Below are positions 7,013 to 8,510 of a stretch of 11,560 nucleotides of DNA, piece after piece. Both the position numbers and the translations under genes were made by a program. Positions within the stretch are counted from its first letter, which is position 1. Every line of letters starts with the position of its first letter. This DNA is from a virus: UHGV virus genome UHGV-0176440; one strand, written 5' to 3'. Under the pieces are notes generated by a model that was not told the DNA's origin, ran no database searches, and saw only the letters and a program-made list of their open reading frames with translations.

Positions 7013-7399
7013 TTACACAGACGCTTTAATCTTGTAGTATTGACTGCGTGATAAGCCGTATTTCTCAGAAATATAACTTTGTGATTGTCCTTTGGTGATT
7101 GCATCAATGATTAAATCTTTATTGTATCTGTTGCCATTGGTTTTGTGCTTGTCACCACTTTTAATAGAGTTGAAATTCTCAATTAATTTAATGGCGTCTT
7201 TAAGGTCGTCTTCGTAAGCATAATCAAAACCCCTGATAAACTCGAAATCACCATTATCTTTTTGTGCTTCAGTCCAGATATCAAATCTTGAGGCTAATTG
7301 CTGGTGGGTAAACTTGGGTTTATTGGTTTCTGTTATGTCTTTCCAGACTCTACCGTCAAATCTTACCAAATGGTCACGATGTTTATAAAAGTCATACAT
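7013..7399 (-). CDS. Putative DNA-binding protein with C-terminal helix-turn-helix (128 aa)
   Basis: ORF-track ORF 7013-7432 starts at TTG; the internal ATG at 7397-7399 has AGGAGG just upstream and overlaps the HNH gene stop (TAATG). C-terminal segment NRYNKDLIIDAITKGQSQSYISEKYGLSRSQYYKIK looks like a resolvase/terminase-small-subunit-type HTH. Confidence 0.6.
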   Translation of the reverse strand: MYDFYKHRDHLVRFDGRVWKDITETNKPKFTHQQLASRFDIWTEAQKDNGDFEFIRGFDYAYEDDLKDAIKLIENFNSIKSGDKHKTNGNRYNKDLIIDAITKGQSQSYISEKYGLSRSQYYKIKASV

Positions 7400-7671
7400 T
7401 AAACCTCCTGTAGTAAATTGTTTGGGTGGCAATTTCTTTTATTACCATCCCTGAAGATAATTTTTTTAGTTGCCTGAACTTCATGATGCAAAAACCAGAT
7501 GACATATTTCACATAATAATCACGAGTGCCATAACGAATCATTGGATTACCGTAAGCGTCATCTCTTGTCTTAACCTCTCCACCATCAATCCATTCAAGC
7601 ATTCCTGTTTCGTAATTAATCATGAAGTAAGTTGCAAAGAACCGTTTAATATCATCTCGCCATTGCTTCAT
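7399..7671 (-). CDS. HNH endonuclease (90 aa)
   Basis: Motif VIWFLHHEVQATKKIIFRDGNKRNCHPNNLLQ (paired His, then DGNK..N..NL) typical of small phage-associated HNH nucleases. SD AAGAGG upstream of ATG. Confidence 0.7.
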   Translation of the reverse strand: MKQWRDDIKRFFATYFMINYETGMLEWIDGGEVKTRDDAYGNPMIRYGTRDYYVKYVIWFLHHEVQATKKIIFRDGNKRNCHPNNLLQEV

Positions 7672-7673
7672 AA

Positions 7674-7952
7674 TCAGACCTCTTGAGATAACTTGTGAAT
7701 CTTGATGCTCAATAGTCGGGCAATATCAATTTTAAAGCTGTTAAGTGCCTTCAAAGTATCTAAAGCGTCCGTAGTAATTCGGATGTGCTTACGACCTTTA
7801 GAGACTGGATATTTAAGTAAATCCGACTCAGTGACTTCTTTAGCAATTGCAAGCTGCATAACAGTCTGATGAGGCAAGTTAGTTGCTCGTTTAATTCTGT
7901 TAAGCTCGTTAAAAGCTTCCTCTGAAATACGGGTTAATGTGTGTTTATTCAT
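7674..7952 (-). CDS. Putative ribbon-helix-helix DNA-binding protein, possibly tandem RHH (92 aa)
   Basis: Two beta-strand-then-two-helix patterns (HTLTRISEEAFNELNRIKRATNLPHQTVMQLAIAK and KHIRITTDALDTLKALNSFKIDIARLL). ATG directly follows the TAA of the upstream gene; SD AGAGGAA. Confidence 0.55.
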   Translation of the reverse strand: MNKHTLTRISEEAFNELNRIKRATNLPHQTVMQLAIAKEVTESDLLKYPVSKGRKHIRITTDALDTLKALNSFKIDIARLLSIKIHKLSQEV

Positions 7953-8510
7953 TTAAAATTCCTCTGTAACTAAATAAGGGTCAAACTCGAAATCTGGTTG
8001 CTCGTTTTCCATTGGTTCAATATTCCCAACGGCAATATGATGTTCAACAATGCCAATTAATTTCGCGCACATTACAGCAAGCAAAGCGCAATATTTATCG
8101 CTTGGTAATTCGTAACTAAGTCTGGTTGCCTGTCTTTGAAGATGGCTCGTCACTGTGCTTGAGCTAATTTCATCAAGATTCTTTAGAATATAAAATAGTT
8201 TTTTGTTGTATTTCGGGTGACCTTCACTTCTGCAAAATCCGATAATTAAATCTTCAATTTTTGATGGTAGTTGTTCGTAAGAATCAAAGTTAGCCAGATA
8301 ATTTTTAATAGTGTTCTTCGTGCTCTTTCTGGTTGGCATATAACGACTCCTCGGTGTAATTGCCCGAATTACTTCGTCAATGCCTTTGCGTTCTGCTCTG
8401 GTGAACTTGGGTACTTCGTGGCTGGTGGGATTGTTTGTGTAGCTGTAGGAGTTGTATCTGTTACGTTGTCTCGATGCCTGAAGCATCGCTCTAAACTCTG
8501 CGTCTCTCAT
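7953..8510 (-). CDS. Hypothetical protein (185 aa), first gene of the leftward operon
   Basis: ORF immediately downstream of a near-consensus promoter; no recognisable motif. Confidence 0.6.
   Translation of the reverse strand: MRDAEFRAMLQASRQRNRYNSYSYTNNPTSHEVPKFTRAERKGIDEVIRAITPRSRYMPTRKSTKNTIKNYLANFDSYEQLPSKIEDLIIGFCRSEGHPKYNKKLFYILKNLDEISSSTVTSHLQRQATRLSYELPSDKYCALLAVMCAKLIGIVEHHIAVGNIEPMENEQPDFEFDPYLVTEEF

Follow-up and report, generated by a model that had tools for sequence, protein, structure and literature searches.

The PLEs of Vibrio (elements that are like phage-inducible chromosomal islands) measure about 18 kb, and by what means infection is sensed by a satellite whose phage is strictly lytic is, to our knowledge, a question still open even for PLEs. 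PLEs and satellites of Escherichia coli swap RepA/ori modules, and the PLE protein CapR is a homing-endonuclease domain that has been domesticated in a satellite (PMC10055350). PLE11 and other satellites carry a tape-measure gene of their own, which in PLE11 is paired with Rta, a protein that blocks the tape-measure protein of the helper (PMC12987554). Here we describe an operon of four genes, g1 to g4, at positions 8510 to 7013 on the minus strand of the virus genome UHGV-0176440 (11,560 nt; this whole stretch of DNA is referred to as the window). We read it, with a probability of roughly 0.55, as the promoter-proximal early or control operon of a putative satellite, PLE-like and 11.4 kb long, that is integrated by a serine recombinase and whose helpers would be lytic phages of Felix O1 type (Ounavirinae).

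By description, PLEs share with this element the form of a compact island, a large serine recombinase, an association with a lytic myovirus and a content of mostly orphan genes, together with a swappable replicon cassette, a homing-endonuclease-derived gene and an own tape-measure gene. The element differs from them in its size, in its host, which belongs to the Enterobacteriaceae and not to Vibrio, in its presumed helper, which belongs to the Ounavirinae, and in its g1 protein, which has no RepA_N match. Among the 224 E. coli satellites reported by Barth et al., the putative ones of phages belonging to Justusliebigvirus (Inny, Muut, Mt1B1_P17) resemble it in having tape-measure and baseplate genes while most tail genes are missing, in their modular replication initiators, in the serine recombinase present in a subset of them, and in the traffic of homing endonucleases between phage and satellite (Barth, Dunham and Seed, 2023; PMC10055350). 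The Justusliebigvirus satellites have genes for a RepA_N initiator, a decoration protein and the major capsid protein, whereas the present element has none of the three; they also mostly have tyrosine integrases beside tRNA genes and match Stephanstirmvirinae, whereas the present element lies in wrbA and matches Felixounavirus. In the literature that we searched, no satellite of Felix O1 or other Ounavirinae and no serine-recombinase satellite in wrbA was described, and the element apparently represents an undescribed family of a known, PLE-like kind, set apart from both groups by their descriptions.

If this reading is correct, a compact satellite of Felix O1-type phages is borne by about 7% of the complete E. 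coli genomes, 396 of the 5426 having a match to the g1-type cassette. These phages are used in Salmonella and E. coli typing, in biocontrol and in therapy; under the same reading, both host range and the outcome of treatment would be influenced by a resident element hijacking or blocking them. As the likely on-switch of the element, the operon combines one ribbon-helix-helix (RHH) protein, three sets of operators and a matching array of sites in the helper, and this circuit could reveal the means by which a satellite notices infection by a phage that is strictly lytic.

Organization of the g1-g4 operon

An earlier note, made from the sequence alone, had described four tightly coupled genes behind a near-consensus promoter. 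This was partly confirmed: the genes are coupled and follow a conserved promoter-like site of sigma-70 type, while the names given to the proteins hold in part. The four open reading frames (ORFs) are consecutive and all on the minus strand. The operon runs leftward and opens with g1 (8510-7953), which encodes a 185-aa orphan core protein. It is followed by g2 (7952-7674), encoding a 92-aa tandem RHH-like putative DNA-binding protein that is probably an operator-binding repressor, by g3 (7671-7399), an optional insert encoding a 90-aa truncated HNH_3-like protein, and by g4 (7399-7013), encoding a 128-aa optional accessory protein with a C-terminal helix-turn-helix (HTH) of resolvase type. We placed the start of g4 at the ATG at 7399 (128 aa), replacing the TTG at 7432 (139 aa) of the ORF list, because its homologues, in all 16 clusters, are 128-133 aa long and begin with MYDF. 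The stop codon TAA of g1 is directly followed by the ATG of g2, the g2/g3 junction reads TGA-tt-ATG, and at the g3/g4 junction, TAATG, the ATG of g4 overlaps the stop of g3. A ribosome-binding site of GAGG or AGGAGG type precedes every one of the four starts, and a scan found no terminator-like site within the operon. The ratio of non-synonymous to synonymous substitution rates (dN/dS) was 0.07-0.21 in most comparisons of g1, g2 and g4 (0.07-0.19 for g2), with a single g4 pair at 0.46, and g3 differs from its copy in E. albertii by 6 synonymous and 0 non-synonymous substitutions. The four ORFs are real, translationally coupled genes under purifying selection.

The promoter-like site P_L (8589-8561, minus strand; TTGACA-17-TAGTAT with a TG extension, 10/12 matches) lies 43 nt upstream of g1 and is positioned to serve the whole operon. 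Back to back with it, and divergent, lies the stronger promoter-like site P_R (8597-8626, plus strand; TTAACA-18-TATAAT, 11/12 matches). Both sites are nearly invariant in five related elements, one of which is from Citrobacter.

Phased TTAACA sites and the predicted binding of g2

With at most 1 mismatch allowed, the window contains four copies of the pattern TTAACA-N5-TTAACA where 0.15 would be expected, and 0 of 200 shuffles reached four. All four sites overlap promoter cores, with their hexamers phased at 11 bp. The candidate operator O_L (TTAACAGAGAATTAACA; 8532-8548, minus strand) is located between the -10 element of P_L and the ribosome-binding site of g1, at about +6 to +22, and the candidate operator O_R (TTAACATTTTATTAACA; 8597-8613, plus strand) covers the -35 element and spacer of P_R. 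A run of three phased hexamers (TCAACA-N5-TTAACA-N5-GTAACA; 6447-6474, plus strand) lies over the -35 element of a third, strong promoter-like site (TTGACA-17-CATAAT; 6450-6422, minus strand), upstream of o236, o67 and the tape-measure and baseplate genes. The sites are kept in the sibling elements; the run of three hexamers is present in all those of E. coli, including that of strain 97-3250 (L002), which has an alternative cassette. The Citrobacter copies retain the hexamers but differ in their spacers, and for this reason we regard the sites as bearing the signature of protein binding.

The g2 sequence shows a beta-alpha-alpha pattern twice in one chain, HTLTRIS-EEAFNELNRIK-…PHQTVMQLAIAKE and KHIRITT-DALDTLKAL-…IDIARLLSIKIHKL, and its two halves align with each other (hhalign E=0.002 over 15 columns). 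The label of tandem RHH protein that g2 had been given in the earlier note therefore stands as a sequence pattern with an internal repeat, accompanied by weak matches to DndE (Pfam E=0.088; NCBIfam E=0.0048), but not as a family assignment, the scores being far below the cut-offs. Neither a PDB sequence search nor a tblastn search of 50,697 phage records returned a match to g2. Its homologue in L002 is 36% identical and has different neighbours, and the residues of the putative beta-strands, H4, T5, T7 and R8 in the first unit and K55, I57, R58 and I59 in the second, are invariant between the two. The RHH proteins Arc, Mnt, CopG and TraY offer a comparison. With its two putative units g2 would be laid out like the single-chain tandem RHH protein TraY of the F plasmid; as with the phased operator subsites of the MetJ/Arc/CopG repressors, its candidate operators consist of hexamers directly repeated at one helical turn (11 bp) on promoter cores, and the gene has an autoregulatory layout.

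Since g2 is the putative DNA-binding protein common to all variants of the element and its recognition residues are conserved, we infer that this tandem RHH-like protein is the binder of the TTAACA sites. In the uninfected cell, g2 would bind, as a single-chain tandem RHH protein, to the 11-bp-phased TTAACA (TGTTAA) hexamers over P_L, P_R and the third promoter, and would thereby keep leftward and rightward transcription of the element low and autoregulated.

Motifs shared with Felix O1-type phages

The TTAACA motif had been defined on the satellite before it was sought in a phage, and its enrichment in the phage is therefore independent evidence of a common recognition system. The whole genome of phage wV8 (L027), a presumed helper, contains 22 TTAACA-N5-TTAACA sites, compared with 1.25 +/- 1.26 in Markov simulations (maximum 4). 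Fourteen of the 22 are found at 14357-14945, within a gene-free gap of 1.65 kb between gp027 and gp028, where the unit YTGTTAAG recurs mostly every 11 nt. No annotation covers this region, which in Felix O1-type phages could serve as a regulatory array or as an origin of replication. At 55047-55074, between the tail-fibre gene and the next operon, wV8 has a run of three hexamers that is present in phage P54 too.

Two arrangements are possible, and the data do not discriminate between them: a helper protein may act on the satellite promoters, or g2 may act on the helper array. Infection would in either case shift the occupancy of the operators, with the replicating helper titrating g2 away or a helper protein of the same specificity acting at these sites. 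A more ambitious version, which we consider speculative and rather unlikely as a whole, would make the operon a switch that senses the helper by titration. Here g2 would shut the three promoters until the wV8 array of at least 14 sites soaks it up and so fires the satellite, and g2 occupying the array would interfere with the helper; g1 would belong to a new replication or recruitment class, and g3 would be a domesticated, nuclease-dead HNH protein.

Another sequence shared with the phages lies in the ORF-poor region of the window. Here, 87 nt (10065-10151, plus strand) are 75-95% identical to about 100 Felixounavirus and Suspvirus genomes, with E-values down to 8e-12. The segment consists of about 12 pentamers, (GGTNN)n, followed by GGTATGGGTGGATTGTCGTAGCCACGTTAAAAATC, and is positioned between a promoter-like site at 9991-10019 and a terminator-like hairpin at 10156-10181. 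In the phages, (GGTNN)n is found among the replication genes, in a gap of ~550 nt that extends from the DNA ligase gene to the gene of a 195-aa orphan, and is present a second time at a distance of ~1.3 kb. It is absent from the g1-type siblings L007 and L009 and from the alternative cassette described below. We consider (GGTNN)n a candidate helper-derived cis site or small RNA. An hhalign comparison of g1 with wV8 gp096, the protein encoded beside (GGTNN)n, found no relation.

The element as a putative satellite

The whole element (98-11512) comprises 11,415 bp. The window begins and finishes with sequence from the 3′ end of E. coli wrbA, into which the element is inserted, and alignment with the empty site set the 7-nt core, AAAGCAC, at 91-97 and 11506-11512. 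The only structural genes are those for a tape-measure protein and a Dit-like baseplate protein; no capsid, portal, terminase or polymerase gene was found in the element by means of the ORF list, Pfam or PHROG. A segment of the baseplate gene (2068-2592) is ~95% identical in nucleotide sequence to more than 200 Felixounavirus genomes, and both ends of the tape-measure gene are 76-79% identical to Felixounavirus. The tape-measure protein as a whole is only 33% identical to the phage protein, and both genes are mosaic. When all proteins of the element were compared with the whole wV8 genome using tblastn, only the tape-measure and baseplate proteins matched. The GC content is 40% throughout the element, against 39% in the phage; that of E. 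coli is about 51%. Judged by these identities, the baseplate and tape-measure genes are derived from a helper phage. Alleles of the two genes in the siblings L009, L014 and L016 show identities of 43-47% (tape measure) and 62-75% (baseplate), which suggests matching to different helper lineages. The combination of a Felixounavirus-like baseplate segment and the lack of an own set of virion genes fits the idea, already raised in the earlier note, that the operon resides in an element that probably exploits a helper phage.

Sibling elements that share this gene order are inserted either at wrbA or, where the recombinase is a different one, in a DUF72 gene beside cmoA. They were also found in Citrobacter, and a more distant version in Pantoea has g1 at 34% identity. 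The ~11.4-kb architecture is thus conserved across two integration sites and three genera (Escherichia, Citrobacter and Pantoea); some members of the family carry insertion sequence (IS) insertions.

A search with a 19-mer made to represent the predicted attP junction, TGTAAAAGCACTAGTATTC, returned five matches. Three of these are in element-related metagenome contigs (L022, L023 and L026); the other two, L024 and L025, show no other similarity to the window and were set aside as chance matches of the 19-mer. L023 (ERZ506742 NODE-633; 11,233 nt, 14.7x coverage) has a terminal overlap of 55 nt in addition to the attP junction, lacks host flanks, and is a circular permutation of a sibling element. 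The contig OOBX01000469.1 (23,009 nt) carries the attP junction and is about twice the length of the element. The circular copy points to excision or to an episome. The IMG/VR loci with g1 are on contigs of 25-52 kb that look host-embedded and are uninformative as to packaging. Being lytic, phages of Felix O1 type leave no prophages; given this, and given that the element excises or exists in circular form, a satellite is the most economical reading. The element is most likely a PLE-like satellite of Ounavirinae that probably parasitises Felix O1-type phages.

Core and accessory genes of the operon

Across the 5426 complete E. coli genomes, the commonest form of the operon consists of g1 and g2 alone. 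Of the 396 genomes with a partial match, just 19 are covered over at least 80% of the operon and have g1 to g4 complete. In a minority of elements g3 is present as a discrete insert of ~274 nt. Its last codons in the window (CAGGAGGTTTAATG) duplicate the end of g2 (CAAGAGGTCTGA), and in Citrobacter, where g3 is lacking, g4 overlaps g2 directly (…GCGGAGGTTTAATG…). The presence or absence of g4 is independent of both the recombinase allele and g3, and most siblings lack it; in other siblings the g3/g4 slot holds a 66-aa, a 59-aa or a 95-aa HNH-like gene. A block equal to 7408-10184 of the window (g3, g2, g1 and 1.7 kb of non-coding DNA) has been swapped as a unit in L002. g1 and g2 with the adjoining non-coding region thus form a conserved cassette, and g3 and g4 occupy a variable accessory slot.

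A possible replication role for g1

The first gene of the replacement block in L002 encodes a 311-aa HTH_36 protein (Pfam 8e-7) that matches the replication-initiation, DnaD-like and O-like families of PHROG at 1e-10 to 3e-9. As g1 occupies the slot that holds this O/DnaD-like initiator in sibling elements, and as the block is exchanged together with the non-coding region, we favour, by position, a role for g1 as a replication-initiation or replisome-recruitment factor. The g1 protein has a helical core at residues ~61-165 and an acidic, aromatic C-terminal tail (...DFEFDPYLVTEEF), which is conserved as …DFEFDPY…EEF. Acidic C-terminal tails of proteins of the single-stranded DNA-binding (SSB) type recruit partners and the replisome, and the g1 tail, which recalls them, would act as a recruitment handle.

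The g1 family has 1089 members, and all 120 of those listed are from Enterobacteriaceae. Among 1.84 billion representatives it amounts to essentially one cluster at 50% identity plus three distant relatives, and in 185,579 species genomes it was found at five loci. Its conservation together with the recombinase and tape-measure architecture extends as far as Pantoea. A search of the 50,697 phage records with tblastn gave one weak match in an Aeromonas phage, with uninformative neighbours. Searched against BFVD, the g1 model matched only uncharacterised phage proteins, and a PDB sequence search returned noise. Two of the distant homologues, P0159 (274 aa) and P0161 (286 aa), have a C-terminal extension that ends in WLP.L.CYVD..TGEM; this ending resembles the N-terminal 'INYETGMLEW' of g3 and of HNH_3 proteins, hinting at a traffic of shared domains.

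Several observations weigh against reading the operon as the control operon of a satellite, or against parts of that reading. The total number of promoter-like sites in the region is at the level of chance (14, versus 13.4 in shuffles). The matches of g2 to family models fall below threshold, and the protein that binds the TTAACA sites could instead be g1, another protein of the element backbone or a helper protein. g1 has no detectable homology or fold match to an initiator or to any characterised protein in Pfam, PHROG, NCBIfam, PDB or BFVD, so that the case for its role in replication is one of positional equivalence only. This case is weakened by our search for iterons in 8511-10554, in which no clear array was seen beside g1. 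Finally, the circularity of one metagenome contig speaks for excision or an episome and not for packaging.

Sequence features of g3 and g4

The label of HNH endonuclease that the earlier note had attached to g3 holds for its ancestry and not for its predicted activity. g3 matches Pfam HNH_3 (PF13392) at 22.7 bits, below the cut-off of 24.8 (E=7.6e-5; residues 52-86 on positions 1-36 of the 46-position profile). It retains the N-terminal region and the DG-N...NL core of the HNH_3 homing endonucleases of I-HmuI or HNH-AP2 type, with BLASTP matches at 2e-4 to an HNH_3-AP2 protein and at 4e-26 to the 95-aa HNH-like protein of sibling elements. The full-length AP2-HNH protein is itself 37-41% identical to homing endonucleases of T4-like phages. 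In contrast to these enzymes, g3 lacks the AP2 DNA-binding domain and has Phe74 at the position of the general-base His (IIFRDGN, compared with IDHIDG in the full-length AP2-HNH protein and IIHRNG in the 95-aa relative). The same Phe is found in its commonest relative, P0137 (189 member sequences), the two together reading IIF(R/K)DGN. The g3 ORF ends in ...NNLLQEV, four residues past NL, and the helix with the metal-ligand Asn/His is absent because the ORF runs into the duplicated tail of g2. Four of ten g3 relatives (P0138, P0140, P0142 and P0143) are frameshifted within the motif. A PDB sequence search with g3 returned only noise, and tblastn found no match in the 50,697 phage records. By these features g3 is a truncated homing-endonuclease remnant that is predicted to be nuclease-dead; by analogy with domesticated domains such as CapR, it may have been retained in some non-catalytic function. 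In RefSeq, 'HNH endonuclease' thus labels a truncated protein without catalytic residues, which calls for caution in annotation.

The g4 protein is composed of an N-terminal alpha/beta domain, whose fold is of no assigned type, and a C-terminal three-helix HTH of resolvase/transposase type. We found no match of g4 to a small terminase (TerS) family in Pfam or PHROG, none to an oligomerisation domain, and none by tblastn in the 50,697 phage records. Measured against the N-terminal HTH, oligomerisation domain and family match that characterise TerS, the g4 sequence does not qualify as a TerS protein. It would act as an optional, sequence-specific DNA binder that modulates helper or element DNA.

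Alternative explanations

The earlier note had pointed out that the locus does not have the usual HNH-TerS-TerL packaging layout. This was upheld, as the element has neither a terminase nor a portal gene, and none adjoins the operon in the related loci L001, L002, L004, L007, L009 and L014-L016; an ordinary packaging module therefore stays excluded. The two functions that the note proposed instead are not rescued by this result. In one of them, g3 would cut phage DNA in a nuclease-based defence or interference module, guided by the neighbouring DNA-binding proteins. Its RefSeq label, its weak HNH_3 matches in Pfam and PHROG, its location at a mobile element's variable slot, as is typical for anti-phage genes of accessory kind, and the purifying selection on it would all fit. 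We nevertheless consider this very unlikely, given the replacement of the catalytic His by Phe, the missing metal-ligand helix and the frameshifts in its relatives; most elements, moreover, carry g1 and g2 without g3, and a search of PADLOC-DB 2.0 returned no match for g1 to g4 at E<=0.1. In the other proposal, the hijack of packaging, g4 would be the small terminase of the satellite and g3 the HNH partner of the helper terminase. The C-terminal, resolvase-like HTH of g4 and its lack of TerS matches leave this highly improbable, as does the absence of g4 from most siblings, by which it cannot be the packaging specificity factor of the family. g3, the supposed partner, is likewise optional as well as inactive by sequence, and wV8 has no HNH gene annotated beside its terminase gene.

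A different role for g1 is the alternative that we take most seriously, although we still think it doubtful. Under it, g1 would be a transcription factor, an anti-repressor or an infection sensor (for example an activator of the tail block), and replication would be carried out by helper proteins on helper-like cis sites. The equivalent slot of the alternative cassette, however, encodes a clear initiator-like protein, (GGTNN)n cannot be a universal origin since it is missing from the g1-type L007 and L009, and the acidic tail of g1 resembles, from general knowledge, the replisome-recruiting tails of SSB-type proteins. Many antitoxins are RHH proteins, and with small, translationally coupled genes such as these g2 might be paired as antitoxin with g3 or g1 as toxin, stabilising the island. 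We find this barely plausible, as g2 occurs without g3 in most elements, its homologue in the alternative cassette has other neighbours, and neither g1 nor g3 matches a toxin family. We also give very little credence to the notion of a decaying prophage or island remnant whose small ORFs have no current role. IS insertions in some family members and the frameshifted copies of g3 are in keeping with decay, but the low dN/dS values in most comparisons of g1, g2 and g4, the retention of architecture and size across Escherichia, Citrobacter and Pantoea, the conserved promoters and operators, and the circular copy at 14.7x coverage are not; the related phages are, from general knowledge, lytic and would leave no prophage remnants. 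The control operon of a PLE-like satellite is thus the reading that we retain.

Other features of the element

At the left end of the element, a large serine recombinase (173-1816, plus strand), the integrase, matches Pfam Resolvase, Recombinase and Zn_ribbon_recom. It is followed by the Dit-like baseplate gene (2622-1813, minus strand) and the tape-measure gene (4926-2758, minus strand), both identified by Pfam and PHROG matches; in Citrobacter L009, an insert of ~2 kb splits the tape-measure gene. The small orphans o67, o236 and o107 lie between the tape-measure gene and the four-gene operon. On the other side of the operon, the ORF-poor region extends for ~2 kb to a small serine recombinase of invertase/resolvase type (10555-11130, plus strand; PHROG DNA invertase, 7.6e-56). 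This right-end slot is variable, containing a 30%-identical allele in L001 (13429-13971) and an intact HNH_3-AP2 homing endonuclease in L007 (10696-11220). The whole window gave no Rfam match at E<=1, and a tRNA scan of it returned nothing.

The intergenic region at 5987-6551 (565 nt) contains the promoter-like site at 6450-6422 on the minus strand, followed by terminator-like hairpins at 6414-6392 and 6251-6229. It further contains three overlapping repeats spaced at 13 nt (6172-6229) and a 22-nt inverted repeat (6015-6036 and 6071-6092), and, placed before the tail genes, it has the look of a control point for attenuation or antitermination. A 41-nt direct repeat with 85% identity between copies is located at 6102-6142, between o236 and o107, and at 11453-11493, just inside the right end, and could be a site for a regulator or a recombinase. 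The terminator at 11144-11178, which follows the small recombinase, is 86-91% identical to the annotated rho-independent terminators of wV8 at 15526-15557 and 67713-67747.

Within the ORF-poor region, a 48-nt AT-rich repeat is found at 9105-9152 and 9200-9247, with a spacing of 95 nt; the window, L007 and L008 have two copies, and L001 and Citrobacter L009 have one. Downstream of P_R, a 58-aa ORF (8808-8984, plus strand) is preceded by the ribosome-binding site AAGGAAAG and encodes one hydrophobic segment (MVNLPPELGSPDVWAGGGVGLLAGLLLRYVLVRVLVVFKLF...). It has no PHROG match, and it is probably real because its Citrobacter copy differs mostly at third codon positions; it is probably a gene for a small membrane protein driven by P_R.

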